64,000 nucleotides of DNA from an uncultured Muribaculaceae bacterium (GCA_964607675.1 CAZSLC010000011.1:347-64346), one strand, 5' to 3'. Numbered from the stretch's first letter, positions 13,196 through 59,129 are shown. Numbers and translations: made by a program. Notes: generated from the letters alone by a model not told the origin.

Positions 13196-13475
13196 CTTTG
13201 ACTTTTACCAACTGATCCTTTAAGACATCCGCACAATCATTTACACAATCCTCAAAAGTAGAAGAGCTTTTTTCCACTACTAAATCATCTCCTGGTATAG
13301 CTAAGATAACTTTTACATTTTTGTTGTTGTTTTTGCTATCAGGTTCTACAGAAAGCACAACTTCAGCTTTGATAATGTTATCGAAGAATTTGGTCAATTT
13401 GCCAATTTTCTTGTCAATAAAATCTAAAAGCTTTTGATCAGCATTAAACTTAATCGATTGAACTCTTATTTCCAT
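13176..13475 (-). CDS. hpf: Ribosome hibernation promoting factor (HPF/RaiA family)
   Basis: [27 protein letters not shown]..; 99 aa short HPF. Conserved position next to the recombinase and rpsU. Confidence 0.85.
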   Translation of the reverse strand: MEIRVQSIKFNADQKLLDFIDKKIGKLTKFFDNIIKAEVVLSVEPDSKNNNKNVKVILAIPGDDLVVEKSSSTFEDCVNDCADVLKDQLVKVKEKRFGK

Positions 13476-14412
13476 TTTTACCTCCTGTTTTAGCTCTTGG
13501 ATGAGCGGTTAAATATACTTTTTTTAGTTGTTCGAAAGAGTTATGGGTATAAACTTGTGTCGCAGCGAGCGATGAGTGTCCTAATATCTCCTTAATACTA
13601 CTAAGGTCAGCCCCATTATTTAAAAGGTGTGTGGCAAGTGTGTGTCTCAACACGTGCGGTGACTTCTTACCTGAAAAACCATCAAAAGAACTAAGCTCCT
13701 CTCTCACTACATTATTAACAAAGCGTGGATACATTTTTTTACCATTGTCCATTAAGAAAAAGTATCCTTCATAATTGTCCTTAAACTCTTCCTTATTTCT
13801 TTTCAAATATAATAAAATATCTTCACAAACAGAAATGGGAACAGGTATTTCTCTTAATTTATCACCTTTTCCTACAATTCTAAAAATATTTCTTGACTTG
13901 TCGAAATCTGAAATTTTTAAATTTATCAACTCTCCCCGCCTCATCCCTGTTGAGTAAAGTATAGTGATAATCATTTTATTGCGGTGGAAATGATAAGGTT
14001 GGCTCTCCATATCAATGTTATCCTCCGCATGAAAATACTCCATTATGGAACTCTGCGAATAGAACGAAGGGAGTCTGTGAGATTCTTTAGGTCTATATAT
14101 CTTTTTTACTGGATTGGATGCAAGTATAGATTGTTTCACTAAAAAATTTGAAAAACTACTTATGGCAGATAGTTTTAGGTTAATCGTCCTTGGGGAGATC
14201 CCTTTATCGAGAGCTTGGGCAATAAATCCTCTTATATTTGAAGGGATAAGCAAATCGACTAATTCTTCTTGATTGTAATTATACAAATCCTCTTCTTTCG
14301 AGTGAGGCAAGAAATAGAGATAAAAATCGCATATTGCCTCTTTATAAAGTTGATATGTGCGTTCGGAATATCTTTTCTGAACTCTTAAATATGTGAGAAA
14401 TTGATTAATCAA
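13450..14412 (-). CDS. Tyrosine recombinase, XerC/XerD-like
   Basis: TTG start ([16 protein letters not shown]). N-terminal SAM-like domain. Catalytic motifs [37 protein letters not shown]. Housekeeping synteny with rpsU and hpf. Confidence 0.85.
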
Positions 14413-20937: not shown

Positions 20938-20976
20938 AAATCACGGGTGAGACTGCTGTTTCACCCGTGATTTTTA
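20938..20976. terminator. Bidirectional intrinsic terminator between convergent mutB and the lipoprotein operon
   Basis: TCACGGGTGA (20941-20950) / 10-nt loop / TCACCCGTGA (20961-20970): a perfect stem flanked by AAA and TTTTT. Confidence 0.8.
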
Positions 20977-20991
20977 TTATGTAAAATGATT

Positions 20992-22545
20992 TTAATCGAA
21001 GACGAATTCAAATTCATCTATGTAGAGGGTACTCCCCTCCCCTCCTGTGAAATAATCTGCATATTTGCTTGCTGTCGCCACGACAACACAATGCTTTGGT
21101 TTGCGACTATCTCTATAAACTAATTCAATTGAAAACTCTTTGTACCCCTTTGTATCTTTGTCATTGACAAGTTCCCCATAGGCGATAACACCAGAATCTG
21201 TGTTTGGGTCAATGAAATTTTTCTTACTTGTATCTACAATATAGGGTGTTTCCCAGTCTGTCAGCATAACAAAAATACGACATATATCTGACTGACCTGC
21301 CAAACTTGTATATGGTTCCTTCGTCTTGTTGATTAGCTGTGGAATATAACTGTAATGACCTTTTAAGTATTTTGGGCGAGAAGTATATGGGCGGCCAAAA
21401 CTGATTTTTGCATTTGTACCACTTCTCTCAACAAAAAAACCAGAATAAACATTGCCACCTGCAAGAATGCCAAGTACCGAGGCAGAGGTCAACTTTGCAG
21501 CTTTCTTGCCAGAGCCACTAACTGCGACAACTGTTTCCTCAGGTGAAGTTGGATTCGTCTCTGTAAGTGTGTTGGCACCGATATTTCCACTATCCCAGAT
21601 ATAATTGGATGAGGATAAATCTTTGTCAGGGAACCAGTTTTTTCCACTTTTAAACCAATCGTCAAAGCTCATATTTGGTAACTGAGCATCTAACTCTGTA
21701 GTAAAACTTTTCACCTCTCCACTATTGCCACCTGCAGTAGCCTTATAGTTGTACTCAACACCTGGGGTAAGAGGGGACAAAGAGGTTGAAAATGACGAGC
21801 CGTCGATAGTAATTTTGGAAAAGGGAACTTCTACCCACTCACTGTCAGTTGCTTTTTTATAGAGAAAGGTGGGACTTCCCATCGATGCCACATACGTTCC
21901 ATAGATAGTAGCATGTTTGGCCCACGCATCGGCATGGTTTGTCTCCAAAGATGGAGTGGTCTGAACTATCTGAACTTTCCACAACTCTATTTTACCATTA
22001 TACAACACCGAAAAAGAGACAACTCTTGTAAAGTCATGAACAGTAGAAGGATCGGGACTTATGACACTGTTAATAGGGCCCAATTTGATCTCCTTGATAA
22101 CAATATTTTTCAATGATTGCGCATTAGATACTTTTATTAGGGCTGTTTTAGAGTCAATATCAAAGAGTGTCTCTCCAACTTGATTCTCTACCTTTATGTA
22201 TCTTTCTACTTTTTGTGTAGCTTTAATGGTCCAAACATAATCTTGATACGTTGTAAGGGTATATTGAAAATCTTTTGAAAGATCAATGTGAGACGAAAGC
22301 TCTGGTGATACCTTTGCATTGTTCGAAACTTCCATCCGTAACAATCTTACATTGCTAAGAATCACAGTGTCCTCGACCTCGATTGAAACTGTCCTATATT
22401 TTGAGTCAATAACAGACTCTCCCTTTTGACCAGCGACCTCAAATGCAGTAATGTCACCATGAACGATTGGATATGGAATATCGTTTTTAATACACGAATT
22501 GAGTAATGACACAAAAAATAAAAAGATTATTAGATACTTTTTCAT
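20992..22545 (-). CDS. Surface lipoprotein, Fn3-like plus C-terminal PCMD-like domain (gene E, last of a 5-gene operon)
   Basis: Lipobox LLNSC. C-terminal 230 aa (QLPNMSFDDWFKSGKNW..YIDEFEFVFD) are 173/230 identical to the C-terminus of the 23330-25456 product. I recognise this as resembling the Bacteroides PCMD (putative carbohydrate metabolism) domain. Confidence 0.7.
   Translation of the reverse strand: MKKYLIIFLFFVSLLNSCIKNDIPYPIVHGDITAFEVAGQKGESVIDSKYRTVSIEVEDTVILSNVRLLRMEVSNNAKVSPELSSHIDLSKDFQYTLTTYQDYVWTIKATQKVERYIKVENQVGETLFDIDSKTALIKVSNAQSLKNIVIKEIKLGPINSVISPDPSTVHDFTRVVSFSVLYNGKIELWKVQIVQTTPSLETNHADAWAKHATIYGTYVASMGSPTFLYKKATDSEWVEVPFSKITIDGSSFSTSLSPLTPGVEYNYKATAGGNSGEVKSFTTELDAQLPNMSFDDWFKSGKNWFPDKDLSSSNYIWDSGNIGANTLTETNPTSPEETVVAVSGSGKKAAKLTSASVLGILAGGNVYSGFFVERSGTNAKISFGRPYTSRPKYLKGHYSYIPQLINKTKEPYTSLAGQSDICRIFVMLTDWETPYIVDTSKKNFIDPNTDSGVIAYGELVNDKDTKGYKEFSIELVYRDSRKPKHCVVVATASKYADYFTGGEGSTLYIDEFEFVFD
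20995..21684 (-). repeat. Paralogous ~690-bp segment, copy 1 (encodes the C-terminal PCMD-like domain)
   Basis: Collinear with 23333-24022 without indels. About 75% aa identity by manual alignment, with long near-identical DNA runs (e.g. ggccaaaact.atttttgcatttgtacc). Confidence 0.8.
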
Positions 22546-23333
22546 TTGACCTTCTTATTATCCGACTTATTTCCCAAAACATATGGGATAACAAATGAAA
22601 CCCCAATATTTATTGAAAAGAGATCTATTTTAAAATCTGCTGAGCTTGTCTCATAACTCCCCTCTATCACTTGGTTTGTAAGTTGAGTAACTTTCTTATA
22701 ATTGAGTCCCATGATACCAACTGAGACCTCAACAGCCAAATCATTTGTAACGAAAGCAATCAAACCAGGGACTACACCAATGCCTAATTCAAATATATTT
22801 TGAAACGTACCTACAAGCTCCTCCCCTTTACCTGAAATTAGCTTGCTCTGTCCAGCTCCAGCAGTAAGTGCTATCTCATTGAAAAACCCAAATCTCATAC
22901 TATTTCCCAATGAAATATAATTTCTAAATGTCAATGCCCCATAATATGTATGGGCAAGATTGTAAAAATCCTTTATCTCAAGTCCAAGATCTTCATTGAT
23001 ATTTAATGAGGCATTATCCAGTTTTATAAGGCTTCTTTTATAGACAAATTTAGCCCCAGCAGCAAGGTTGTCACCAAAGAAAAAAGAGATATATGGACTT
23101 GCTTTCAATGAAAATCCACTTGCATTTAAATCTTCAAGAACTAAAAACTTATAATCAAAGAACTTGTAGTCTTTGTACGATATCGTACCTCCAAATTCGA
23201 GACTCCCTTTAGGAATAAAAACTGGAGCATTTTTTATATCTATCCCTCTATCAAATTTTTGACCATATGATGTTATTGAAATCGAGGTGATAAAAATAAC
23301 AAAAACTAAAATTCTATGAAATTGTTTTATCAT
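22542..23333 (-). CDS. Putative small outer-membrane beta-barrel protein (gene D of the lipoprotein operon)
   Basis: SPI-type signal peptide (..SITSYGQ). About 240 aa of alternating hydrophobic strands with Gly/aromatic girdles. ATGA overlaps with both neighbours. Confidence 0.55.
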   Translation of the reverse strand: MIKQFHRILVFVIFITSISITSYGQKFDRGIDIKNAPVFIPKGSLEFGGTISYKDYKFFDYKFLVLEDLNASGFSLKASPYISFFFGDNLAAGAKFVYKRSLIKLDNASLNINEDLGLEIKDFYNLAHTYYGALTFRNYISLGNSMRFGFFNEIALTAGAGQSKLISGKGEELVGTFQNIFELGIGVVPGLIAFVTNDLAVEVSVGIMGLNYKKVTQLTNQVIEGSYETSSADFKIDLFSINIGVSFVIPYVLGNKSDNKKVK

Positions 23334-25456
23334 TCAAAAGAAAATTGAAATTCGTCAACATAAAGTTTACTACCAACACCTCCTGTAAAGAAATCAGCAT
23401 ATTTACTTGCTGTCGCAACCACAACACAATGTTTTGGTTTTTTATCATTTCTATATACTAAATTGATGGTAAACTCTTTGTATCCATTTGTATTAGATTC
23501 TTCAACAAGTTCTCCGTAAGCAATAATACCTGGTTCTGTTTCTGGGTTGATAAAGTTCTTCTTGCCAGTATCAACTACGTATGGAGAATCCCAATCTGTT
23601 AACATTACAAATATATGACATTTATCCATTTGTCCTGCCAAATTGGTATATGGATCCTTTGTTTTATCAATAGCTACAGGGGCATAATTGTAATATCCTT
23701 TCAGTGCAGTTGGCCTTGATGTATAAGGACGGCCAAAACTAATTTTTGCATTTGTACCTGACCTCTCAACGAAGTAACCCGAATAAACATTTCCACCAGC
23801 CAACACCCCTAATACTGAAGAAGATACCAATTTTGCAGCCTTCTTCCCTGATCCCGAAACAGCCAATAGATTCTCCTCAGGGGCAGTCGGGTTAATCTCC
23901 GACAATGTATTTGCACCAGCATTTCCACTATCCCATATAAAATTTGCAGCAGTTAAATCAGCGTCAGGGTACCAATTTTTGCCACTCTTGAACCAGTTGT
24001 CAAAGCTCATATTGGGAAGCTGGGCAACTGTCTCCGTGGTGAAAGAGATGATGTTGGAGTTCTCTGCAGCACTTATTGCTCTGCACTGATACTGCGTATT
24101 AGGTTCGAGAGAGGTGATTTTAAATGAATATTTCACTCCATCTTCAGTGTATGAACCACTCGTTTTGGTCCATGCTGCATCTGAGCTCTTTTTGTACTCA
24201 AACCCAATTCCTTCTGGGCGCGTCACGGTATTCCACTGAGCTGTTACATAGGCAAACTTAGCCCATGGATCCACGGAGAGTGTACTTACTTCAACATCAG
24301 GGATAACTTTGATTGTAAATGGAACTCTAACATATTGTGACTGATTGTCAATAATATCTATATTGAAAAGATACTCTCCCAATGGTAATTTGGACAACAA
24401 GGTTTTGAAATCTACAACAACTCTATTGTTCCCAATCTTAAAATCTGACCAAGAAATACCAGCATTGTTGATTGTCATCTTTAAATAATCAGATATCTCC
24501 TCAATATTGAACGAATATGGGATACCCGAACCAAGTAACACTTGTGAATTGTGGGAGATAGAGAGTTTTCTTATCCCTGCTTGCGAATTAATATTTAAAG
24601 CTCCAAATAAAGCACTCTGATATGGCACAGTCAATGGCGAGGCAATATCGAACCCTTCACCCTCAACTGTAGGGGCAGGTTTCTTTGACAAAGAGATGGT
24701 GCATGAATACTCTTTGTAATTAGTTGAAGGATCGTATGAGATATTGATTTGTGAACCTCCTGTGTTGCTACTTCCACTCTCATCAACGTTAAAGTTAAGT
24801 ATATAGTGCTCTCTTGGGTTCACAGGGGATATGAGGTTTGACACCTTATATGTGACACCATTTTTGTTTGTTAGTGACACTTCCCAGTTGATTGTTCCTG
24901 AACATTTGAAATAACCAGATTTATTGATTGTGCCAAGCTCTTCACTGTATATTAGGTTTCCAAGCTCATTATTATTGGTGATAACAGCGACAATTTTAGG
25001 AAATGCTTTCTTTACTGCTTCGGAAAATTTAAGGGAGACCTTGACATTGGAAAGGGTACATACAATTGAGGATGATACCTGCTTGCCAGCTACAATGGTC
25101 ACAGTGTCTTTTCCAGAGTAAAAAGGTTTGTCAAATCCAGCTTCAACACTTTCGCCATTTGATGCCGTAATGATATATTTGCCTACTTTCAACTTGAGAG
25201 GTTGTGTCTCAAATTCATGATGATCATTGGTTTTCTTAACGATAACGCCTGAGGCAGAATCTGCTATAGAAACTGCAAAAATAGGATCTACAACTTCTTC
25301 AGATTTTACCACAATATTTTCCCCCTCTTGCTGCCCAAAGCTCAACGAAAGATACCCCTCATCATAATCAAGCGGTGGTCTTTCTACCTTATTGCATGAA
25401 AATAAAGCAGCAATTAAAAAAGAAAAAATGATATATTTATATATTGATAACTTCAT
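23330..25456 (-). CDS. Surface lipoprotein: DUF4493-like N-domain, middle domain, Fn3-like, PCMD-like (gene C)
   Basis: Lipobox AALFSC. N-terminal region (..GKYIITASNGESVEAGFDKPFYSGKDTVTIVAGKQVSSSIVCTLSNVKVSLKF) is typical of what I recall as DUF4493. The C-terminus is paralogous to gene E. Confidence 0.7.
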   Translation of the reverse strand: MKLSIYKYIIFSFLIAALFSCNKVERPPLDYDEGYLSLSFGQQEGENIVVKSEEVVDPIFAVSIADSASGVIVKKTNDHHEFETQPLKLKVGKYIITASNGESVEAGFDKPFYSGKDTVTIVAGKQVSSSIVCTLSNVKVSLKFSEAVKKAFPKIVAVITNNNELGNLIYSEELGTINKSGYFKCSGTINWEVSLTNKNGVTYKVSNLISPVNPREHYILNFNVDESGSSNTGGSQINISYDPSTNYKEYSCTISLSKKPAPTVEGEGFDIASPLTVPYQSALFGALNINSQAGIRKLSISHNSQVLLGSGIPYSFNIEEISDYLKMTINNAGISWSDFKIGNNRVVVDFKTLLSKLPLGEYLFNIDIIDNQSQYVRVPFTIKVIPDVEVSTLSVDPWAKFAYVTAQWNTVTRPEGIGFEYKKSSDAAWTKTSGSYTEDGVKYSFKITSLEPNTQYQCRAISAAENSNIISFTTETVAQLPNMSFDNWFKSGKNWYPDADLTAANFIWDSGNAGANTLSEINPTAPEENLLAVSGSGKKAAKLVSSSVLGVLAGGNVYSGYFVERSGTNAKISFGRPYTSRPTALKGYYNYAPVAIDKTKDPYTNLAGQMDKCHIFVMLTDWDSPYVVDTGKKNFINPETEPGIIAYGELVEESNTNGYKEFTINLVYRNDKKPKHCVVVATASKYADFFTGGVGSKLYVDEFQFSFE
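23333..24022 (-). repeat. Paralogous ~690-bp segment, copy 2
   Basis: See copy 1 (20995-21684). Confidence 0.8.
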
Positions 25457-25467
25457 AATGATAGAAA

Positions 25468-26691
25468 TTAGGCCACCCTTTTAATTGTGATTGTCTTAGA
25501 GAGAACATTGCCATTTGCATCTTTTACAGCGATAACAAATTGATGGGTTTGTTGCTCGACAGGAATATTTGATTCAATCAAAGCCATGAAACCACCTATT
25601 GAAAATGAATATGATGTTTTTCCTGCGACAGGGCCATTGGCCAATAGACCCAACCCATTTACAAATTCTGCCTCAGCTGCACTCAGATTAGCCATATCGA
25701 ATGAAGCGGGCAAAGACATATTAGATAACATTGTTTCGAGATACACAGAGTTTATTGTTACTTTTAGTTCTGAAATACCAGCAGCGGCACCTATTGCAAC
25801 ATCTATGACTGCAGTTTGAGATTGTGCATCTGTAATTGTCAAAGGTGCATCAATACCAGGGGCGGTGACGGTGATAGGATCCTCTGCAGGTGGGGTCACT
25901 GGGTTATCTCCACCATCTCCACCATCTCCACCTCCATCAACAGGACCTTCGTCCCAACCACCTATTATCACATCGTGCTGTCTGTTATTGAGGGTGTAAT
26001 CAACTGTTATTCCCGATTCCCCTATATTGATTTCTCCTGTCTCTTTTGCATCTATTTTCAATACGTGGTGATCTTTTGCTGCCACCTCTACTATCTGGAA
26101 TTGATGATTTACGACAGAGCCACCGAGTTTTCTTGTTCCTTGTACAAATACTGTCATCGGAGCTACTTTGAAATAGCCTGAAAGCTCTCCAACTACTGCA
26201 GCCTTATCATAAACTAAAAAGCCATAATCGGTAGAAACAGTAATTGTGAAATCATCATTTAACTCTCTGATAAATCTTTCGGTACAAAGTATTGTAACTT
26301 TCATATTTTTCAGTGTACATACGAGATCCAAATCTACCATTGAGCCCGACTCTATTTTAAAGGCTTGATTACCAGCATAGAGTGGTTGACTAAAAGCGGC
26401 ATCTTTATTACCTGGCGAGTTGGCAGATATTGTATAATTGCCTGGGTCAAGAACTAATACTGAGGGCATACTTGAAAATTTGTCCCAACTCTCTACCTCA
26501 ACACCAGCATTGTCTTTAAGTGAGACTGCAAAATCTTTGACATTCACTACGTCTTCTGATTTTGTAGCAGTGAATTCTCCATCCGAATGAATATTTAGTG
26601 TTAGCTCACCACTCTCTTTTGTAACAATCTCTTTATTGCAAGCGGTGAGGACAACTCCTAATAGAGCAAAGGTTAATAGTAACTTCTTCAT
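25468..26691 (-). CDS. Surface lipoprotein: DUF4493-like N-domain, Gly/Asp linker, shared middle domain (gene B)
   Basis: Start set at ATG 26691 (MKKLLLTFALLGVVLTAC lipobox). GNYTISANSPGNKDAAFSQPLYAGNQAFKIESGSMVDLDLVCTLKNMKVTI parallels genes A and C. GGGDGGDGGD linker. Confidence 0.7.
   Translation of the reverse strand: MKKLLLTFALLGVVLTACNKEIVTKESGELTLNIHSDGEFTATKSEDVVNVKDFAVSLKDNAGVEVESWDKFSSMPSVLVLDPGNYTISANSPGNKDAAFSQPLYAGNQAFKIESGSMVDLDLVCTLKNMKVTILCTERFIRELNDDFTITVSTDYGFLVYDKAAVVGELSGYFKVAPMTVFVQGTRKLGGSVVNHQFQIVEVAAKDHHVLKIDAKETGEINIGESGITVDYTLNNRQHDVIIGGWDEGPVDGGGDGGDGGDNPVTPPAEDPITVTAPGIDAPLTITDAQSQTAVIDVAIGAAAGISELKVTINSVYLETMLSNMSLPASFDMANLSAAEAEFVNGLGLLANGPVAGKTSYSFSIGGFMALIESNIPVEQQTHQFVIAVKDANGNVLSKTITIKRVA
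25906..25938 (-). repeat. In-frame 9-bp tandem repeat (atctccacc x3 plus a partial unit) encoding GGDGGDGGD
   Basis: Direct reading of 25906-25938. Confidence 0.75.
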
Positions 26692-26719
26692 ATAGTTGTA
26701 ATTCTTTATTATCAATTTA

Positions 26720-28843
26720 TTATTTTTCATATAACATAGTAATGTCATCAATTGTCAAAATGCTACCAGCATATACTTTATAATCACCAGCTGGGATGGT
26801 AACTGTTTTTTTAGAACATTTAGGACTACCAGAACAAGATAAAAACTCAATCTGAATAGATGTAGCCGTCAATGAGGTGTTTGAGTATGTGAGATTAACC
26901 TCCCCTTTGGTATAAGATGACACTGTCGCTCCATTAGTGAGGGATCCAGTAGCTATAACAGTACTACCATTCAATACCTTCACCGTTGCAGAAAAACTCT
27001 CACCTTCATTAGGGGCATATTTGTAATAAAACTCCATTTTTGTAGGACGGGAAGTAAATGAATGCCCCGTACCTGAGACAGAACCATCATCAGCCGTTGT
27101 CCCAATAAATAATTTACCAACTGTACTACCAGAACCAACTATCTCAGAATTAGCATTATTAACAGCAATACTCATCACCTGTGCCGCTTTCGAGCCGCTT
27201 CTTGAAGATGAAGTGTAGCTTGTGGTAGGGAAACATTTATAGTTAGGGTACGCCACAGTGATAGAGGTAGGCATAGTAGCTATATTGTTGGAGTCCCACC
27301 ATTGATCAGCTGTCCATGGTTGATAGAAAGGTTGATTGTACTTGCTGAGTCCCCCTTTTGCTGTTCTTGTCCCTGAGGTCCAATCCTCAAATCCGCCGTT
27401 CCCAACCTGCATCTGATTCTCAGTTTTAAACTGCATATTAGAGGAAATTCCATAATTGTATGTGCCCCTCACATAATATGTAGTATTTGATGAGAGACCA
27501 GTGATATTAAATAGTGCGTTTTTGCCCGATACCGAACTCGTATATTGAGGGACACTCCAAGATAACCCATCTACAGATACTTCTGGCTTCAATAAAGATG
27601 GATTTCCCTTAACAACGGATAGTGTAACATCGGCCGATTTAGCCCACACAGAAGATGAAACAACATCAGAAATTGCAATTTGTCCCTTTTCTACATTTAT
27701 ATAAACTGTATCCTTTTTCACTTGGTCATAAATATCGGTAACAATAATTTCAAATGTATTGGATGCCTTTTCTGGGGTTGTATATTTAAAATTCTTTATA
27801 ATGTTTTTAAAATTGAGGCTTGCCATCTTAGCATTTTTCAACTCTTGTGTCCAGGCAAATCCAGAATTAGTCAATAAGGAAGCATCAGCACTACTTACAT
27901 TTAATAAATCATATTCAGCAGCCCATCCCTGATCAGTTAGATAAGGAGAGGTAACTTTCATGATACACCCTTTTATCCCAGCAGGAGAGGCAATCGACAA
28001 AGAAGCTGATGATGGATCAACCCCCTCCACTTCTGTCAAAATGCCTGTTGTCTGATCAAACCCTTGAAGGACAAATGATGGCGGATCCTTTGGAAGCATG
28101 TAAGATGGTAAATCTATTGTTACATTTTTATCATCCGTTGACGTATTTATCGTGATAGTTAGTGTCACAGTCACTGTTGGGGCCTCTTTTGTATCGACAT
28201 TGAAGGTCATAAAATCTGCAGCATCAACAGCTATTGGAGCTGAAGTGAAAAGATGCTCTTTGTTATCTAACTTTGATTTGGCATAGACCACCACTACAAC
28301 ATCTCCTTTTTGGACATAACCTGACTCGGTGGTATTCGATAGAAATTTGAGTGAATCAGAGTATGATTTATTCTTTACACTCACCCAATAGTCTGTATAA
28401 TCACTCTTTATGTTGGCACCATAGCTAATAGCTACTTTAGCGTTGCCCTGCTTGCACACTACAGAAACCTCTTTAGTAGTCTGAGGATCAACAGTAAACT
28501 TTTTCTCACCTTTGAAGAAAAAAGAAGAAAAACCTGCTTTGGTAGAATCTCCATAAGTAGCTCTTATTGAATACTCACCTGCATTCATGGCCACTTTCTT
28601 TCCACTTATTTCAGAATAATTATTCCATCTTTTGAAAATTACATTTTTTGAATTGATTAACTCAACCTTAAATGTACTAACATCGAGAGTCGGGACTTCT
28701 GCTTTAGTTTTTAAATCAGTTTTTTCTGTTGAAAGAGAAAATTCTATTTCAGACTCGTCTAAAGGGTTAGTGTTCGTCCTTTTCTCGCAAGATGTTATTG
28801 ACAAAATCGCTATAAGAGAAATAAATAGGGTCCTTTTATTCAT
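26720..28843 (-). CDS. Surface lipoprotein: DUF4493-like N-domain, middle domain, Fn3-like, divergent PCMD-like (gene A, first of the operon)
   Basis: Lipobox LSITSC. GEYSIRATYGDSTKAGFSSFFFKGEKKFTVDPQTTKEVSVVCKQGNAKVAI. Fn3-like WAKSADVTLSV..LSSNTTYYVRGTY. C-terminal GNGGFEDWT.. domain. Confidence 0.7.
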   Translation of the reverse strand: MNKRTLFISLIAILSITSCEKRTNTNPLDESEIEFSLSTEKTDLKTKAEVPTLDVSTFKVELINSKNVIFKRWNNYSEISGKKVAMNAGEYSIRATYGDSTKAGFSSFFFKGEKKFTVDPQTTKEVSVVCKQGNAKVAISYGANIKSDYTDYWVSVKNKSYSDSLKFLSNTTESGYVQKGDVVVVVYAKSKLDNKEHLFTSAPIAVDAADFMTFNVDTKEAPTVTVTLTITINTSTDDKNVTIDLPSYMLPKDPPSFVLQGFDQTTGILTEVEGVDPSSASLSIASPAGIKGCIMKVTSPYLTDQGWAAEYDLLNVSSADASLLTNSGFAWTQELKNAKMASLNFKNIIKNFKYTTPEKASNTFEIIVTDIYDQVKKDTVYINVEKGQIAISDVVSSSVWAKSADVTLSVVKGNPSLLKPEVSVDGLSWSVPQYTSSVSGKNALFNITGLSSNTTYYVRGTYNYGISSNMQFKTENQMQVGNGGFEDWTSGTRTAKGGLSKYNQPFYQPWTADQWWDSNNIATMPTSITVAYPNYKCFPTTSYTSSSRSGSKAAQVMSIAVNNANSEIVGSGSTVGKLFIGTTADDGSVSGTGHSFTSRPTKMEFYYKYAPNEGESFSATVKVLNGSTVIATGSLTNGATVSSYTKGEVNLTYSNTSLTATSIQIEFLSCSGSPKCSKKTVTIPAGDYKVYAGSILTIDDITMLYEK

Positions 28844-28877: not shown

Positions 28878-28885
28878 CAAATATA
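28878..28885 (-). promoter_or_regulatory. -7 promoter box (TATATTTG) for the lipoprotein operon
   Basis: Exact TAnnTTTG on the minus strand, 34 nt upstream of ATG 28843. Confidence 0.4.
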
Positions 28886-53059: not shown

Positions 53060-56000
53060 TTGACTGAAAACACCTATATAGAACTCGAAACACAGCTGAC
53101 TAACAACGAATTAGATGCATATTTTGCAATAATTCCAAATGAAGAAAAAGAAAGAGAATTCATCATCCCTATCAAATATATATATTTTGACATAGTGTGC
53201 CGAAAAGGGTTAGGTATTGAGAGTATTGAGGATTTAAATGGAAAAGAGGTGGTAATCATGGGGGGGAGCAGATGTGATAAAATATTGAGAGAGAATAACA
53301 TTAATTGCTCAATATTTTATTACAAGACGATAGAAGAGGGGATAAAGGCTATCAATCAAGGGAGACACGACGCTGTCCTTTGCCCAAATATGATGGGCAA
53401 GTACTTATTGTCAGAAATAAACGAAAGCAAGAATCTTATAACTAAACAAACCCACACAGAACCTTATATAGCCGCCATAATAGTCAAAGACCAAGATCTT
53501 TACACTCATATGTCAAATACCATGAACCTTCTTAAAAAAAGTGGAAAGTATGAGGAGATATATTATAAATGGTTTGGCGAATATGAACAGATGTATCCAG
53601 ACAAAAGTTTACAACATACCATTTATATATTTACAGGGTTATTAATATTGTTACTCTCATTTTTCCTAATTCTAATTAAGAAAAGGTCAGACATCATTCA
53701 CAATAAATACCTTGGTATGGTAAGGAGTGTAGAAAAGGATTACCTTGAGCTGAATACTATATACTCTAACGTATCAGCTGGTATCGAGGTGTATGATAAA
53801 GATGGATTTTTGATCAACTGCAACGATAGAGCAATAGAAATATTTGGAATAACCAACAAAGAGATTCTTTTGTCTAAAAGACTCAACATATTAGATGATA
53901 TTTATTACAAATCTACCATCAAATCTTTAGATGATCTAATGGTAGTACATCAAATCACTATTGAAATTGGCAATAAAGAAATTGAGGAGGAGAATCAAGA
54001 TTTTCTGAAAAGAATAGATAGTCGCATAGTCACCGCCATTTTCAGTCCTATGTTTAATTCAAAGGGTGAAATTGAAGGGTTTATAATAACTACCACTGAC
54101 GAGACACATGAACACAAATTGAATAAAAAGTATTTATCTCTATTAAAAGAAAACCAGACTTTGTTAGAGACCGTCCCCTTAGGCATTGTTTCATACAACC
54201 TCAATGGGGATGTCAATTATAGAAATTCTCACCTGTCAAGAATTTTTAATATTGACCCAGAAAAATACGATTCCAAAGATTGGAATTTATTTACACATCC
54301 CCATTTTTGTCAAGACAAATATAAAAATGAGATTCTCAACTGCACAGAGACTATTACAGGGACATTCAACGTTGACAACTCCAATCCAAGATATCTAAAA
54401 AGGTATTCTGATATATTGTACAACCGAACAATACAATATTTCATATCTCCTCTAAAAGATGATCATGGAGATGATATTGGATGGGTAGGTGCATATTCTG
54501 ACATAACTGACATTAAAAATCAGATGGATGAAATAGCAAGGAACAAAGAGTTGCTGGAGCTTGCCCTAAAGAGTGGTAACATTTCATCATGGAGATACAC
54601 CCCTAATGATAAACAATTCACATCCATTCAAGAACACACAGAAACTTACTCATCTGTAGCTCAATACAATAGCTCTTCAAAACAACTTGATGAACAATAT
54701 ACGTTACAGAGAGATGCCATGATTGATAATATTCTCAGTGGTAAACAGTATAAAGATTCAAAAATCTTAAAATTCACTAATCCAGACACGAAAGAGACAA
54801 TATATCTTGACACTCACATAGTTGCTGAAACACGCAATGGAAAAACCATAGGGATTATTGGCATTCAAGCTAATATAACAAAAGACTATTCTTACCGCTT
54901 AGCAATAGAAGAGATAAACTTGAAAAACAAATTGGCTATTCGCACGGGTGGACTCGCTCAATGGGACTATGACACTGAGACTCATATTTTTTACACAAAA
55001 CGTGAATCTCTCAAATCAAATACCCTCAATCAATATACTAAGGATGAATTGATCTCTAAATCACACCCTAAGGATCTTGAAAAAGTAATTGCATTTTTTG
55101 AAAAAATGGATAGCGGTGCTGATGAGAATATTTTTTGTGAAGCAAGAATACTGAATACAGATACCAATAAGTGGAGGTACTATATTGCATCGGGGAGTCC
55201 ATTTGTCAAATCTACAAATGGGAAGGTGGTTCAATACACAGGATTTAGAAAAGACAACACCACATTTGAGAATCTCAACAATGAGATTTTAAAAACCAAT
55301 GAAATAATGAGAAATGTATTTGACAATCTTCCATGTACCCTTTTTATAAAAAACATTTCAGATGATTTTAAATATATTATCGGGAATAAACAATTGTGTG
55401 AAGTTACTGGCCTAAAGAGTGAAAATATAATAGGATTTAACGATTATCAATTGTTTCCAGACAAAGCCAAGGACTTCAGGGAGGATGATATAAAGGCAAT
55501 TAAGAGAGGATCCATTATTTCTTTCCATGAAACAGTGAGCTGGAACAACCATCCAAGAATATTAAAGACTGCCAAATTTCCTTTAACACTATCAGATGGT
55601 GGTCAATTGCTGGTAGGCTTGGCACTTGATGTAACTGAACTAGTTGAAAAAAATATTGAGCTTCAAAAGGAGAAGGAGAAGGCTGAGTGCTCAGATAAAC
55701 TAAAATCTGCATTTTTAGCAAACATGTCTCACGAGATCAGAACGCCACTCAACTCTATCGTTGGTTTTTCTACTTTACTTGTTGAGAGTGAAGACAAAGA
55801 AGAAAAGAAATGTTTCAAAGATATAATCACAAACAACAGCAACCTCCTCCTTAGAGTTATTAACGATATTCTCGATCTCTCAAAAATCGAATCAGGATCC
55901 ATAGATTTTAATAAAGAATTAATAGATTTCAGTAAAGTTTTCGATAGTTGCTTTAGGAGTTTTGTTGAAAAAGGGAAAGAAAAGGGGCTCAACATGATAA

Positions 56001-56365
56001 TTGACAACCCATACGATGAGTGCATTGTACTTACTGATCAAAACAGAGTATCTCAAATATTACACAACTTTATCTCTAATGCACTAAAGCACACATCTAA
56101 TGGATTCATCAAAATAGGATATAGCTATGAGGAGAAGGGACTTATGATATATGTAGAGGACTCTGGAAGAGGTATTCCAGATGATAAAAAGAATTTAATA
56201 TTTAATAGATTTGAAAAATTAGATGATTTCTCACAAGGCACTGGACTTGGACTCTCTATTTCAAAAGCCATCATTGATTCTATTGGCGGAAAAATAGGAT
56301 TTGAATCAGAAGTGGGTAAAGGGAGTACATTCTGGGCCTGGATCCCTTGTGAAAAGGAGAATTAA
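53060..56365 (+). CDS. Sensor histidine kinase 1 (periplasmic solute-binding domain, TM, multiple PAS, HisKA, HATPase_c); 5' end disrupted by an in-frame stop, possibly a pseudogene
   Basis: SBP_bac_3-like N-domain, TM IYIFTGLLILLLSFFLILI, several PAS/PAC-like repeats, H-box LANMSHEIRTPLNSIVGF, G-boxes DSGRGIP and GTGLGLSISK. No receiver domain. The TTG at 53060 is simply the first possible start after the stop. Confidence 0.75.
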   Translation: MTENTYIELETQLTNNELDAYFAIIPNEEKEREFIIPIKYIYFDIVCRKGLGIESIEDLNGKEVVIMGGSRCDKILRENNINCSIFYYKTIEEGIKAINQGRHDAVLCPNMMGKYLLSEINESKNLITKQTHTEPYIAAIIVKDQDLYTHMSNTMNLLKKSGKYEEIYYKWFGEYEQMYPDKSLQHTIYIFTGLLILLLSFFLILIKKRSDIIHNKYLGMVRSVEKDYLELNTIYSNVSAGIEVYDKDGFLINCNDRAIEIFGITNKEILLSKRLNILDDIYYKSTIKSLDDLMVVHQITIEIGNKEIEEENQDFLKRIDSRIVTAIFSPMFNSKGEIEGFIITTTDETHEHKLNKKYLSLLKENQTLLETVPLGIVSYNLNGDVNYRNSHLSRIFNIDPEKYDSKDWNLFTHPHFCQDKYKNEILNCTETITGTFNVDNSNPRYLKRYSDILYNRTIQYFISPLKDDHGDDIGWVGAYSDITDIKNQMDEIARNKELLELALKSGNISSWRYTPNDKQFTSIQEHTETYSSVAQYNSSSKQLDEQYTLQRDAMIDNILSGKQYKDSKILKFTNPDTKETIYLDTHIVAETRNGKTIGIIGIQANITKDYSYRLAIEEINLKNKLAIRTGGLAQWDYDTETHIFYTKRESLKSNTLNQYTKDELISKSHPKDLEKVIAFFEKMDSGADENIFCEARILNTDTNKWRYYIASGSPFVKSTNGKVVQYTGFRKDNTTFENLNNEILKTNEIMRNVFDNLPCTLFIKNISDDFKYIIGNKQLCEVTGLKSENIIGFNDYQLFPDKAKDFREDDIKAIKRGSIISFHETVSWNNHPRILKTAKFPLTLSDGGQLLVGLALDVTELVEKNIELQKEKEKAECSDKLKSAFLANMSHEIRTPLNSIVGFSTLLVESEDKEEKKCFKDIITNNSNLLLRVINDILDLSKIESGSIDFNKELIDFSKVFDSCFRSFVEKGKEKGLNMIIDNPYDECIVLTDQNRVSQILHNFISNALKHTSNGFIKIGYSYEEKGLMIYVEDSGRGIPDDKKNLIFNRFEKLDDFSQGTGLGLSISKAIIDSIGGKIGFESEVGKGSTFWAWIPCEKEN

Positions 56366-56384
56366 TAGATTTAACACATTTACA

Positions 56385-59129
56385 ATGAAATATACAATCA
56401 AAACAATTATTACTATATTATCGTTAATTCTGTGTATAGAAGCATCTTATGCACAAGAGGATTTTTCTGATAGAAAATTAATTGTTCGAGGATGTTCAGA
56501 CTACCCACCTTATGAATACATAAATGGTAATGGTGAAAATACTGGATTCAATATTGAATTAATCGAAGCCATCATGCGTGAAGCAGGGTTTGACTATGAA
56601 ATAGTTCTCAAACCGTGGTTAGAAATACGGAAGGAGTTAGAAGAGGGGGAGGTAGATCTATTAATGGGAATGTACTTCACGCATCAGAGAGACACAAAGT
56701 TTCATTTTGGCATTCCACACAACTACAATTTTCCTTGCTTAATTAGTAAAAAAGGGGATACATATAACGATATCAATTCAATCAAAGGTAAAAGAATATT
56801 AATTCAAAAGGGAGATGAAGCATTAAGAGATTATCTATCAAAGAGAGGTCTTAATGAAGGAATAATCGAATCTTTCAATATAGAAACTGTGATAAGTGCC
56901 CTGATAAATGGTACTGGGGATGTTGCTATTTTTGATAAAATGGTAGCAAGACATTTCATGATATCAAAAGATATATCTAATATTGAAATTAACAATGTGA
57001 ACCTTCCAATTCTCGAATATTGCTATGTTTCAAACAACTTACATTTAATTGAGCAATTGAACCACGCATTTTTAAAAGTAAAGAGCAAAGGAGTATATGA
57101 TAACATCTATAACAAGTGGTTTAAATATAATAAAAAGGAGAAATACTTAAACTATCTATATTTTGTTGTCATTTTACTTTTGGTATTAGCTTTGATTTTC
57201 GTGCTATTCAGTATGGAGCTAAATAAAAGAGTTAAAATTGCAAAGAAAAAAGCAGAAGAAAATGGTGAAAGATATAAGACAATATTTGAAAATACAATTG
57301 TAGGATTGAGGTATTACTCCTCAGATGGTGTCTTAGTGGATCTTAATACAGCTGAAATAAATATTTTCGGAATAAAAGATAAAAAGGTCTTTTTAGAACA
57401 AAAGCTCAACATATTTGAAAATCCATACTTAACAGAGATAATCAATAAAGACAATCCACAACCTTATCACGGAGTTATCGAATTTGATTTTAAGACATTG
57501 CAATATCATCCATACCACGACATCACCACGGTTAGAAAAATCTTATTTATTGATACACGAATAGTACCTATTAGAGATTCAAATGGAGAGATTACAGCTT
57601 ACATAAGAACATCAGTCGATGTCACAGAGAGAGAGAAGAGGGAGATGGAAATGAGCCTCTTCAATCAAAGGGTGAAAGAGATCAATCGCAGAACTGAATA
57701 TGCCATTAAAGCTGCAAATATCATATTTTGGGAATATGATGTAGTTAATAATGTATTCAATGCCATTAATGATCCTATTAACAACTACAATTCCAATATT
57801 CCAATCTCCGAAGGTGATTATTACCGCACCTGCAACCCTGACGACAGAGTAAGACTGATTCCTTCTATCGAATTAATGAAAAATGGAATCAATAAATCAT
57901 TTAACATAAATATAAGGTTTAAAACCAATTACGACAGTGAATGGAGACATTGCACAGTATCAGGGACCCCATTTGACACAACAGATGATGGTGAAGTGAT
58001 AAGATATGTCGGTACTAGGAAAGACAATAATGAAATCATAAAGCTCAATGAAGAAATTGCAAAATATGGAGAAAAGATGAAGCACATCATCAAATCGAGC
58101 AATATCACAACATGGGACTATGATTTTAGAACTAAAGTAATTAGTATAGATTCTAATATCGATTTCTTCCCTAAAAAAGCTGCATTCGAAGAGTATATCA
58201 AACACCTTCCAATAGAGGAGCAGGATGATTTCTCTAATGTTATAAAGGATTTGGTTGCTGGGAAAATACAGTCATTCTCTCATAGACGCACCATATACCC
58301 TAAGATAGATGACCACTCAATAGTCCTACATACAATTATAAGCGGTATTGCGGTTAAAAATGAATTCGGCATCACTACTGGATGCTCAGGATTGTTAAGA
58401 GATGTCACCGAATTGATAGAGATTCAAAAGAGACTTGAGAAAGAGAAACAAAATGCTGAAAATGCAGATAAGCTCAAATCTGTGTTCCTCGCAAACATGT
58501 CTCACGAGATACGTACCCCGTTAAATGCCATCGTCGGATTTTCAAGACTTTTACAATCATCTCAAGAGGGTGAAGAGAAGGGAGAATTTGTAAAAATAAT
58601 TGAAACTAATAATGATATTCTGATTAACTTAATAAATGACATACTGGATCTCTCTAAAATCGAATCAGGCATCCTTGAACTCTCCTATGAAAAATTTGAT
58701 ATAATAGAAATTCTAAAAGATGTTGAAGTGACGATGCTCCATAAAAACACTAACCCTGATTTAAATATTAAGTTTTCATATACAGATATAGAATTAATTG
58801 TGAATCTTGATAGGCAAAGGGTTAGTCAGATTATCAATAATTTTGTCAGCAATGCACTAAAATATACCCCAAAAGGTGAGATTCACATTTGGTATGAAAA
58901 GGTGGATAACGGAATTAAGATATATTCAAAAGATACGGGTATCGGAATTGCCGAAGAGAACCTTCCTTTTGTCTTTAGCCGTTTTGAGAAATTAGATAAA
59001 TTTGCACAAGGGACAGGTCTTGGACTTGCAATATCCAGGGCACTTTGTGATGCAATGGGTGGCAAAATAGGGGTTGAAAGCAAATTAAATGTGGGCTCTA
59101 CATTTTGGTGTTGGCTTCCGATCAACTAA
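56385..59129 (+). CDS. Sensor histidine kinase 2 (signal peptide, solute-binding domain, TM, PAS repeats, HisKA, HATPase_c), an intact paralogue
   Basis: MKYTIKTIITILSLILCIEASYAQ signal peptide, SBP_bac_3-like domain, TM YFVVILLLVLALIFVLF, H-box LANMSHEIRTPLNAIVGF, GTGLGLAISR. ATG 56385 preferred to the upstream in-frame start at 56301. Confidence 0.85.
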   Translation: MKYTIKTIITILSLILCIEASYAQEDFSDRKLIVRGCSDYPPYEYINGNGENTGFNIELIEAIMREAGFDYEIVLKPWLEIRKELEEGEVDLLMGMYFTHQRDTKFHFGIPHNYNFPCLISKKGDTYNDINSIKGKRILIQKGDEALRDYLSKRGLNEGIIESFNIETVISALINGTGDVAIFDKMVARHFMISKDISNIEINNVNLPILEYCYVSNNLHLIEQLNHAFLKVKSKGVYDNIYNKWFKYNKKEKYLNYLYFVVILLLVLALIFVLFSMELNKRVKIAKKKAEENGERYKTIFENTIVGLRYYSSDGVLVDLNTAEINIFGIKDKKVFLEQKLNIFENPYLTEIINKDNPQPYHGVIEFDFKTLQYHPYHDITTVRKILFIDTRIVPIRDSNGEITAYIRTSVDVTEREKREMEMSLFNQRVKEINRRTEYAIKAANIIFWEYDVVNNVFNAINDPINNYNSNIPISEGDYYRTCNPDDRVRLIPSIELMKNGINKSFNINIRFKTNYDSEWRHCTVSGTPFDTTDDGEVIRYVGTRKDNNEIIKLNEEIAKYGEKMKHIIKSSNITTWDYDFRTKVISIDSNIDFFPKKAAFEEYIKHLPIEEQDDFSNVIKDLVAGKIQSFSHRRTIYPKIDDHSIVLHTIISGIAVKNEFGITTGCSGLLRDVTELIEIQKRLEKEKQNAENADKLKSVFLANMSHEIRTPLNAIVGFSRLLQSSQEGEEKGEFVKIIETNNDILINLINDILDLSKIESGILELSYEKFDIIEILKDVEVTMLHKNTNPDLNIKFSYTDIELIVNLDRQRVSQIINNFVSNALKYTPKGEIHIWYEKVDNGIKIYSKDTGIGIAEENLPFVFSRFEKLDKFAQGTGLGLAISRALCDAMGGKIGVESKLNVGSTFWCWLPIN

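Follow-up and report, generated by a model that had tools for sequence, protein, structure and literature searches.

What might five adjacent genes, four of them for lipoproteins and one for a small beta-barrel, build at the surface of a bacterium? The question is raised by a stretch of DNA from an uncultured Muribaculaceae bacterium (GCA_964607675.1 CAZSLC010000011.1:347-64346), 64,000 nucleotides long and called the window below, in which genes A to E share the minus strand between positions 20,992 and 28,843. Gut Bacteroidales colonise by means of surface lipoproteins and type V pili, and to our knowledge most such appendages have neither a known ligand nor a known assembly route. An earlier note, made from the sequence, had taken the operon for an uncharacterised surface system of several lipoproteins, possibly exported through barrel D and unrelated to Mfa/Fim pili. 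Operon-like lipoprotein genes together with a barrel gene are indeed what we find, but export through D is not supported and the supposed unrelatedness to Mfa/Fim pili is weakened. Our analysis places the functional core in the pair of D and E, not in the five genes. We tentatively propose that the locus encodes a surface lectin-display apparatus, a divergent relative of Bacteroidales type V pili anchored by this barrel-lipoprotein pair; we consider this reading possible, if somewhat short of an even chance.

Five genes and their domain families

The genes and the domains of their products, in amino acids (aa), were delimited from open reading frames (ORFs), Pfam matches and, for A, a map made with local hidden Markov models (HMMs).

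26720-28843, minus strand: gene A, 707-aa lipoprotein with lipidated Cys19; DUF4493 at aa 33-246, M domain at about 250-383, Fn3-like module at 394-483, divergent PCMD-like jelly-roll at 485-706 (ORF, Pfam, local HMM map)
25468-26691, minus strand: gene B, 407-aa lipoprotein with Cys18; DUF4493 at aa 26-243, Gly/Asp/Pro linker at 247-268, M domain at 270-407 (ORF, Pfam)
23330-25456, minus strand: gene C, 708-aa lipoprotein with Cys21; DUF4493 at aa 32-255, M domain at 256-385, Fn3-like module at 386-483, PCMD at 484-708 (ORF, Pfam)
22542-23333, minus strand: gene D, 263-aa predicted outer-membrane beta-barrel of about ten strands with a signal peptidase I (SPI) signal
20992-22545, minus strand: gene E, 517-aa lipoprotein with Cys18; Ig-like EN region at aa 19-195 (weakly DUF5018-like), Fn3-like module at 197-292, PCMD at 293-517 (ORF, Pfam)

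Gaps of 28 nucleotides (nt) separate A from B and of 11 nt B from C, while C/D and D/E overlap by ATGA, and D is translationally coupled to C and E. Reading of the ORFs and sequence thus agrees with the earlier note on the five co-directional genes, their spacing and their overlaps, as it does on the lipoboxes of A (ITSC), B (LTAC), C (LFSC) and E (LNSC) and on the SPI-type signal peptide of D, which lacks a Cys and ends in SYG|QKF.

The N-terminal domain of A, B and C had been likened to DUF4493 and the C-terminal domain of A, C and E to PCMD, and Pfam places all of them above the gathering thresholds (27 bits for DUF4493, PF14900; 28 bits for PCMD, PF13201). DUF4493 scores 129.5 bits in A (2.2e-37), 135.4 bits in B (3.5e-39) and 144.0 bits in C (8e-42); PCMD is matched over its full length in C (143.8 bits, 9.5e-42) and E (136.7 bits, 1.4e-39) and partially in A (36 bits, 7.9e-9, profile positions 2-125). 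The Fn3-like module gives a sub-threshold Pfam match to Pur_ac_phosph_N, and NCBIfam has no match for any of the five proteins. The duplicated, domain-shuffled architecture that the earlier note described is borne out by BLASTP, where paralogy lies far beyond chance (E-values from 4.5e-8 to 1.5e-144). C and E are closest, with 62% identity over 328 aa (E 1.5e-144), the other pairs being B and C (27%, 356 aa, E 4.6e-22), A and C (25%, 628 aa, E 4e-26), A and E (25%, 221 aa, E 4.5e-8) and A and B (21%, 419 aa, E 1.5e-12).

Conservation of the locus

We scanned one genome per GTDB species and found relatives of D in 446 species genomes. The best 80 of the loci with D relatives were surveyed with local HMMs for N, M, Fn3, PCMD, EN and D, and the contexts of DUF4493 genes reported here are those at loci picked by D relatives. 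Nearly all 80 loci belong to Bacteroidales, including Muribaculaceae, Alistipes/Rikenellaceae, Candidatus Coprenecus, Prevotella, Duncaniella and Odoribacter, with Bacteroides clarus, B. hominis, B. gallinaceum, Phocaeicola plebeius and Parabacteroides distasonis as further hosts. Three loci (L044, L056 and L075) have the cluster in metagenome-assembled genomes (MAGs) labelled Paenibacillus, Staphylococcus and Pseudoflavonifractor; these bins are probably mislabelled or contaminated.

Next after the last D-type gene comes, in every one of the 80 loci, a gene for a PCMD lipoprotein (median gap 6 nt), which has the full EN-Fn3-PCMD architecture apart from a few truncated cases. In 29 of the 80, a second barrel gene in tandem, D', lies between D and E; its product matches OMP_b-brl_2 and is extended at the N-terminus. 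These D' paralogs are 272-400 aa long, as at L047:10750-11565 and L041:10765-11919, where the core reads D-D'-E. The number of DUF4493 genes, by contrast, ranges from none (21 loci) through one (11), two (3), three (32) and four (5) to five (8). Many genomes have D-(D')-E alone amid unrelated housekeeping genes; one locus (L026) has D-E without A, B and C, next to the parE-like gene that also neighbours the operon in the window, and another (L008) has one DUF4493 gene beside the parE-like gene. SusC/SusD are absent from the homologous loci that were inspected. Since the pairing of D with E is invariant and the number of DUF4493 genes varies, the conserved unit is D plus E, to which the DUF4493 lipoproteins are added as an accessory set that can expand. 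In other words, the operon-like unit of the earlier note stands, but the five genes as a functional unit do not: the functional core is D and E. The order of the window, in which a DUF4493 gene without PCMD precedes one with PCMD and then D, recurs in 44 of the 80 loci, and this part of the gene order is thus also found in other Bacteroidales, as is D followed by E throughout. Such conservation marks the cluster as a genuine system.

As a separate observation, the clusters of B. clarus and B. hominis are preceded by a conserved gene for a 989-aa protein (L047:688-3657 and L084:2832-5801) that joins a response-regulator receiver to a phosphoenolpyruvate-utilising PPDK_N domain. It is a possible regulator and is missing from the window.

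Barrel D and its partner

That D is a small beta-barrel, as first read from its strand-like sequence, agrees with an AlphaFold2 model built on a 45-sequence alignment (pLDDT 81.7, pTM 0.70). The model is all-beta; its strands, about ten in number and antiparallel, include six of 20-26 residues, and the long strands project outward. Against the PDB, Foldseek returns generic small barrels alone (OmpA-TM, OmpW, NspA, OpcA and Pla; TM-score at most 0.58, identity about 10%), and D is predicted to be a small OmpA/OpcA-like outer-membrane barrel. The protein has no Pfam match at E<=1; among its 45 homologs weak Pfam matches occur, 13 to OMP_b-brl (best 5.8e-6), 4 to OMP_b-brl_2 and 2 to DUF3575 (E 0.02), and one homolog weakly matches KdgM. 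A HMMER search that was exhaustive over 1.84 billion representative proteins retrieved 589 representatives at E<=1e-3, 97 of which remain at E<=1e-30. D founds an uncurated protein family, and a KFDRG...FxPKG segment near the N-terminus is conserved. At the other end (22542-22586 in the window), the clade of the window has a Lys-rich tail reaching about 14 residues past the last beta-strand, and more distant homologs end in the classical aromatic terminus F-Y-[ILF].

The partner of D carries a conspicuous sequence of its own. Mature E-type proteins begin with C-I-K-N-D-I-P-Y-P, and 63-65 of 75 sequences agree at each of N, D, P, Y and P. In the window this is

22465-22491, minus strand: post-Cys motif of E, E residues 19-26

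The near-invariant segment, right after the lipidated Cys, spans Bacteroidales families and is unusual for what is normally a disordered lipoprotein tether. It may represent a membrane-proximal contact site, plausibly with D.

The same segment is among the reasons for considering D a dedicated assembly or translocation factor, one that brings its partner lipoproteins to the cell surface or keeps them there, either Slam-like or acting by RcsF/OmpA-like threading, with CIKNDIPYP held in or on the barrel. Such a factor would also fit the adjacency of D and E at every locus and their translational coupling, and the route that exposes Bacteroidota surface lipoproteins is still undefined. Nonetheless, thousands of other surface lipoproteins of Bacteroidota manage without a partner of this kind, a barrel of about ten strands cannot pass folded domains, and neither Pfam searches of D and its 45 homologs nor Foldseek give any similarity to Slam/DUF560 or Omp85. 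We regard this role as very improbable. As to the suggestion of the earlier note that the lipoproteins might leave through D, both the model and the Foldseek comparison give a barrel of about ten strands, too narrow for folded lipoproteins, so that export via D is unlikely, and D as an export pore for them was rejected.

PCMD heads and probable surface location

The C-terminal 200 residues of C align with PDB entries 4jrl (E 3.5e-9) and 3hbz (E 6e-8). The latter is BT2081, in which an Ig-like domain is joined to a galactose-binding-domain-like jelly-roll with a Ca2+ site of structural role and a deep, conserved pocket lined by aromatic residues where the sites of carbohydrate-binding modules (CBM) and glycoside hydrolases (GH) lie; its activity was never assayed, and a role in carbohydrate metabolism was proposed (PMC2954218). 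In our alignment the Ca ligand Asp351 of BT2081 is kept as D701 of C, and the second putative catalytic residue, Asp338, corresponds to D688. The first, Asp259, is replaced by His614 in C and by Arg in E, which favours binding rather than hydrolysis as the function of the PCMD head. The C-terminal motif GxxGSxLxVDE is kept in C and E as in the PCMD structures, and A and C bear the same Fn3-PCMD head as E.

The heads of C and E also show an unusual relationship within this genome. The Fn3-PCMD heads of E (20992-21970) and C (23330-24310) are 64% identical to each other, but across genomes the identity is lower, at most 55% between E orthologs and at most 62% between C orthologs, and the E head of the window is nearer to the C heads of other genomes (59%) than to their E heads. 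The identity between the two heads thus exceeds that between orthologs, which suggests that C and E have recently recombined, or undergone gene conversion, in this lineage.

A head with a deep conserved pocket and a proposed place in carbohydrate metabolism (PMC2954218) brings to mind a minimal, PUL-independent (PUL, polysaccharide utilisation locus) system of glycan capture and uptake, in which PCMD lipoproteins would pass a small oligosaccharide to D acting as a narrow channel of the KdgM/NanC/OmpW kind. The distant likeness of D to the OmpW channel and the weak KdgM match of one homolog point the same way, and the pairing of D with E recalls that of transporters with surface lipoproteins. 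Weighing against uptake, the surveyed loci have no linked glycoside hydrolase, regulator, inner-membrane transporter or TonB-dependent receptor, and their flanks consist of unrelated housekeeping genes that differ between genomes. Moreover, the outward-projecting strands in the model of D are nearer to adhesin barrels of the OpcA/OmpX type, and three pilin-like scaffolds would be superfluous. Uptake of this kind seems improbable to us.

The lipoprotein export signal of Bacteroidota, as defined by experiment, is C-X-K-(D/E)2-X (PMC5080379). After the lipidated Cys the sequences read CEKRT in A, CNKEI in B, CNKVE in C and CIKND in E, a partial match with Lys at +3 in all four, and A, B, C and E are likely, as judged from these residues, to be surface-exposed.

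Pilin likeness of the DUF4493 module

Type V pilins are made as lipoprotein precursors with an N-terminal and a C-terminal beta-sandwich domain and an anchor strand after the Cys; the loop between strands beta1 and beta2 holds the protease site, which in Mfa1 (Cys20) is Arg49|Ala50 and in FimA lies at Arg46, and C-terminal donor strands are present in stalk and anchor pilins and missing in tip and adaptor pilins (PMC13655056). Bacteroides genomes have numerous type V operons each, and their modular tip pilins combine a pilin-like N-terminus and a cleavable Arg with a C-terminal adhesive domain (bioRxiv 10.1101/2024.11.15.621889).

Protein B was modelled with AlphaFold2 on a 16-sequence alignment (pLDDT 77). 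In the model, residues 28-244 form about 8+8 beta-strands; the Gly/Asp/Pro linker behind them is disordered, and the M domain, of mixed alpha/beta type, is predicted with confidence. When it was compared with the PDB by Foldseek, at least 11 structures of the Bacteroidales type V pilin superfamily were matched with E-values from 4e-7 to 7e-5 and probability 1.0, over 245-325 aligned columns.

Foldseek matches of B: 3gf8 (DUF1812/Mfa2 family), 4qdg (BT2657), 5cag, 4gpv, 3r4r ('fimbrial assembly protein' BDI_3522)
Further matches of B: 3pay, 3t2l, 4h40, 5nfi (P. gingivalis Mfa2 anchor), 3ufi, 3up6

The modelled fold of DUF4493 is thus suggestive of a type V pilin, and fold evidence alone is not decisive.

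A second line of evidence comes from the mature N-termini, which we aligned for 178 DUF4493 proteins taken from the 80 loci. In 178 of 179 DUF4493 ORFs the Cys lies just ahead of the domain. An acidic tether is followed by a G-x-L-x-L-x-L strand and then by T-[K/R]-[A/S], and in 154 of 175 sequences (88%) one column of this loop is occupied by K or R, several of the misses being alignment shifts. The commonest tripeptides are TKA, TRA, TKS and SRA, and the site is mostly 27-34 residues after the Cys. In the window the corresponding residues are

28703-28705, minus strand: A Lys47 (T-K-A), candidate processing site, 28 residues after Cys19
26560-26562, minus strand: B Lys44 (T-K-S), candidate processing site, in the loop that the first strand (aa 28-37) leads into
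25304-25306, minus strand: C Lys51 (V-K-S), candidate processing site

In the model of B the loop with Lys44 (aa 41-46, pLDDT <50) is the sole disordered loop inside the folded module. Because a conserved basic residue, a flexible loop and the position known from FimA and Mfa1 coincide, we read the K/R loop as the signature of a candidate pilin-type processing site.

Another conserved element, at the opposite end of the module, is a two-strand hairpin, GITIDYTxNxKxxDIxIPG. In the clusters of Bacteroides and Parabacteroides there are short DUF4493-only proteins, of about 260 aa, that stop exactly at this hairpin (...GITIDxxxTNDxxIDIEIPSDWL), in the manner of a donor-strand pair, and these are candidate stalk- or anchor-like subunits; the operon of the window has none. 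Such short lipoproteins sit at the 5' end of the cluster, for example at L084:6024-6833, L073:5481-6284 and L061:5656-6459.

The claim of the earlier note that the operon does not fit Mfa/Fim pili therefore fares differently by different criteria. By fold and by N-terminal motif it is weakened. Profile searches agree with it, and this is the first of several points that count against a pilus-like system. None of 16 DUF4493 proteins matches P_gingi_FimA, Mfa2 or Mfa_like in Pfam at E<=10, and DUF4493 profiles of 12 and 102 sequences match no pilin in the PDB; in single-protein and profile searches of the PDB the module has no solved relative, the only resemblance being a generic, titin-like Ig strand motif, G-x-Y-x-x-x-A. 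The TM-scores of the pilin matches of B are only 0.33-0.44, with rmsd of 6-12 Å, and generic tandem Ig-like adhesins are interleaved with them at similar E-values. The donor-like hairpin of A, B and C lies inside the protein (aa 227-245 in B, where residues 218-236 are partly of low confidence) and is followed by a linker and more domains, for which reason these proteins are likened to tip or adaptor pilins and not to stalk or anchor pilins; a canonical stalk or anchor pilin gene is missing from the operon. The match to the lipoprotein export signal is partial, with one acidic residue at +4/+5 and none in A. Finally, with D-E and zero DUF4493 genes at 21 of the 80 loci, the core functions without pilin-like partners.

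Much of this would also be expected if A, B, C and E were independent, permanently lipid-anchored adhesins or glycan binders, similar to SusE/F and not assembled in the manner of a pilus, with D-E as a separate two-protein complex. The DUF4493 fold would then be an ancestral or convergent beta-sandwich stalk and the K/R residue would be structural. The missing sequence tie to pilin families, a Foldseek likeness that is moderate and common to generic Ig-like adhesins, the internal hairpin and the loci with D-E alone all favour such an arrangement, as do the CBM-like PCMD heads. On the other hand, a basic residue that is 88% conserved, in a loop predicted to be disordered and at the FimA/Mfa1 distance from the Cys, is hard to call purely structural. 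The headless short proteins that end at the hairpin look like assembly subunits, and the recurrence of the window-like order of DUF4493, DUF4493-PCMD and D in 44 of 80 loci suggests stoichiometric partners. We consider independent adhesins rather unlikely, though still to be taken seriously.

A possible display apparatus

If the locus does encode a pilus-related lectin-display apparatus, as we tentatively prefer, its working might be pictured as follows. A, B, C and E would be lipidated and then flipped to the cell surface, where a trypsin-like protease would cut the DUF4493 proteins at the K/R loop and thereby free a groove. The cut proteins might then join one another, or a base formed by D and E, through beta-strand exchange, acting as modular tip or adaptor pilins that bear adhesive C-terminal domains. 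D, embedded in the membrane, would be a platform for E and not a pore for export; on this platform E would place an Ig-like stalk, an Fn3-like module and a head, the PCMD jelly-roll, whose pocket is of the carbohydrate-binding type. The product may be a short, head-rich fibril or a hetero-oligomer showing PCMD lectin heads, which could bind a glycan ligand on the host, on food or on other microbes.

One may go a step further and speculate that D-E, a pairing not recognised before, underlies a separate branch of type V-like surface fibres, in which DUF4493 subunits, unrelated in sequence to Fim or Mfa pilins, are processed by a protease and strand-exchanged and most of them are lectin-headed, or else that D tethers the invariant lipid-proximal segment of E in a new, barrel-held form of display. 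We put this forward as a doubtful extension.

Comparison with known surface systems

Among known systems the closest parallels are with the type V pili, represented by FimA-E and Mfa1-5 of Porphyromonas gingivalis and the FimB/Mfa2 anchors of Bacteroides. Their subunits are likewise lipoprotein precursors encoded in multigene operons of paralogs, and their body of two beta-sandwiches resembles the modelled fold of DUF4493; in both, a first strand behind the Cys leads into a loop where a basic residue precedes Ala or Ser, at about the distance of Arg49|Ala50 in Mfa1, and some DUF4493 relatives end in a two-strand hairpin. A and C, with adhesive domains appended C-terminally, further resemble the tip pilins of Bacteroides. 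The differences are equally clear. DUF4493 is a compact module of about 225 aa without detectable homology to pilin families in Pfam, Lys is as common as Arg at the putative site, and in A, B and C the hairpin precedes the M domain and, in A and C, the Fn3-like module and PCMD. The canonical fim and mfa operons also lack the barrel and PCMD-lipoprotein pair to which the DUF4493 genes are tied here.

The PCMD structures 3hbz (BT2081) and 4jrl align with roughly 320 C-terminal residues of C and E, the Fn3/Ig-like module plus jelly-roll, including the Asp of the Ca site, but BT2081 is a stand-alone two-domain protein, whereas here the unit is lipid-anchored and fused behind pilin-like or Ig-like stalks. 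Small barrels encoded with pilin-like lipoproteins are also found among the DUF3575/DUF3868 proteins near Mfa-type genes of Bacteroides (BT4227, BT4233-36). D differs from these in not being a member of DUF3575 (2 of 45 homologs match weakly, E 0.02), in lying amid the lipoprotein genes and not at the start of the operon, and in having a PCMD lipoprotein as its invariant partner. The predicted fold of D, with 8-10 long antiparallel strands reaching beyond the membrane, is shared with OpcA, OmpX/Ail and OmpA-TM; TM-scores are at most 0.58 and identity is about 10%, and D is set apart by the conserved segment near its N-terminus and by a lipoprotein partner of its own.

SusE and SusF are comparable in that Ig-like stalks end in a CBM-like beta-sandwich, and E is weakly DUF5018-like, but the locus has no SusC/SusD, enzyme or regulator and its context is not that of a PUL. 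Neither the operon nor its flanking genes contain SusC/SusD, a glycoside hydrolase, an usher or a type IX secretion system (T9SS) domain; for the T9SS sorting domain (Por_Secre_tail or type B C-terminal domain) there is no Pfam match in A-E, and A, B, C and E carry lipoboxes. A PUL, a T9SS cargo locus and a chaperone-usher pilus were accordingly rejected, their defining components being absent, and for the PUL and the T9SS cargo this is what the earlier note had concluded.

Operon signals and neighbouring genes

The signals that bound the operon were found on either side, as the earlier note had reported.

28878-28885, minus strand: putative Bacteroidota -7 promoter box TATATTTG (TAnnTTTG), consensus match read from the sequence
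20938-20973: bidirectional intrinsic terminator, hairpin with a 16-bp stem (terminator scan and sequence)

The TATATTTG box is 34 nt 5' of the start codon ATG of A. The hairpin is flanked by T-runs on both sides and serves E as well as the convergent gene for methylmalonyl-CoA mutase. A scan for sigma-70 promoters gave no more matches than shuffled sequences, and the sigma-70 model is not applicable to Bacteroidota promoters. The start of B was taken as the ATG at 26691, which yields a lipoprotein signal and is also the choice of gene callers. Its frame is open further 5' (ATG at 26748, TTG at 26751; region 26692-26751, overlapping the end of A), and this extension would place MTLLCYMKNNKLIIKNYNY ahead of the lipoprotein signal.

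An identical operon is present on independent Logan metagenome assemblies. The flanking genes are housekeeping ones, for methylmalonyl-CoA mutase subunits, a GyrB/ParE-type topoisomerase, an acyltransferase, an AMP-binding ligase and urocanase. Elsewhere in the window, at 13450-14043 on the minus strand, a 197-aa ORF has a Phage_integrase match (E 2.4e-32) confined to the C-terminal catalytic part and looks like a truncated tyrosine recombinase gene. Two adjacent large sensor histidine kinases are encoded on the plus strand at 53258-59129, more than 24 kb from the operon and with no evident link to it; one has 1035 aa with multiple PAS domains and the other 914 aa with an SBP_bac_3 periplasmic sensor domain.

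Implications

Part of this inventory is already known. DUF4493 and PCMD are catalogued as domains of unknown function, two crystal structures are available for PCMD (3hbz and 4jrl), and public annotation describes the proteins as 'hypothetical', 'DUF4493', 'outer membrane beta-barrel domain-containing' and 'PCMD domain-containing'. The literature that we searched, which did not include the founding paper on type V pili (Xu et al. 2016), makes no mention of DUF4493, PF14900 or PF13201. Nor does it describe the cluster, the D family or a pilin-like nature of DUF4493, the structural-genomics paper on BT2081 being the sole informative study of PCMD. To this extent the system is uncharacterised, as the earlier note had held, and the barrel-lipoprotein core of D and E has no described counterpart.

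The cluster is widespread, relatives of D being present in at least 446 species, including those of Bacteroides, Parabacteroides, Phocaeicola, Prevotella, Alistipes and Muribaculaceae. With candidate sites of cleavage and a candidate domain for ligand binding in hand, the hypothesis can be tested directly in hosts that grow in culture, among them P. distasonis and B. clarus YIT 12056, in which the E gene is HMPREF9445_03182. Should DUF4493 be a processed, strand-exchanging relative of the pilins, the type V pilus superfamily would be broader than its sequence families imply, and it would gain a branch with carbohydrate-binding heads that is tied to a dedicated outer-membrane barrel.

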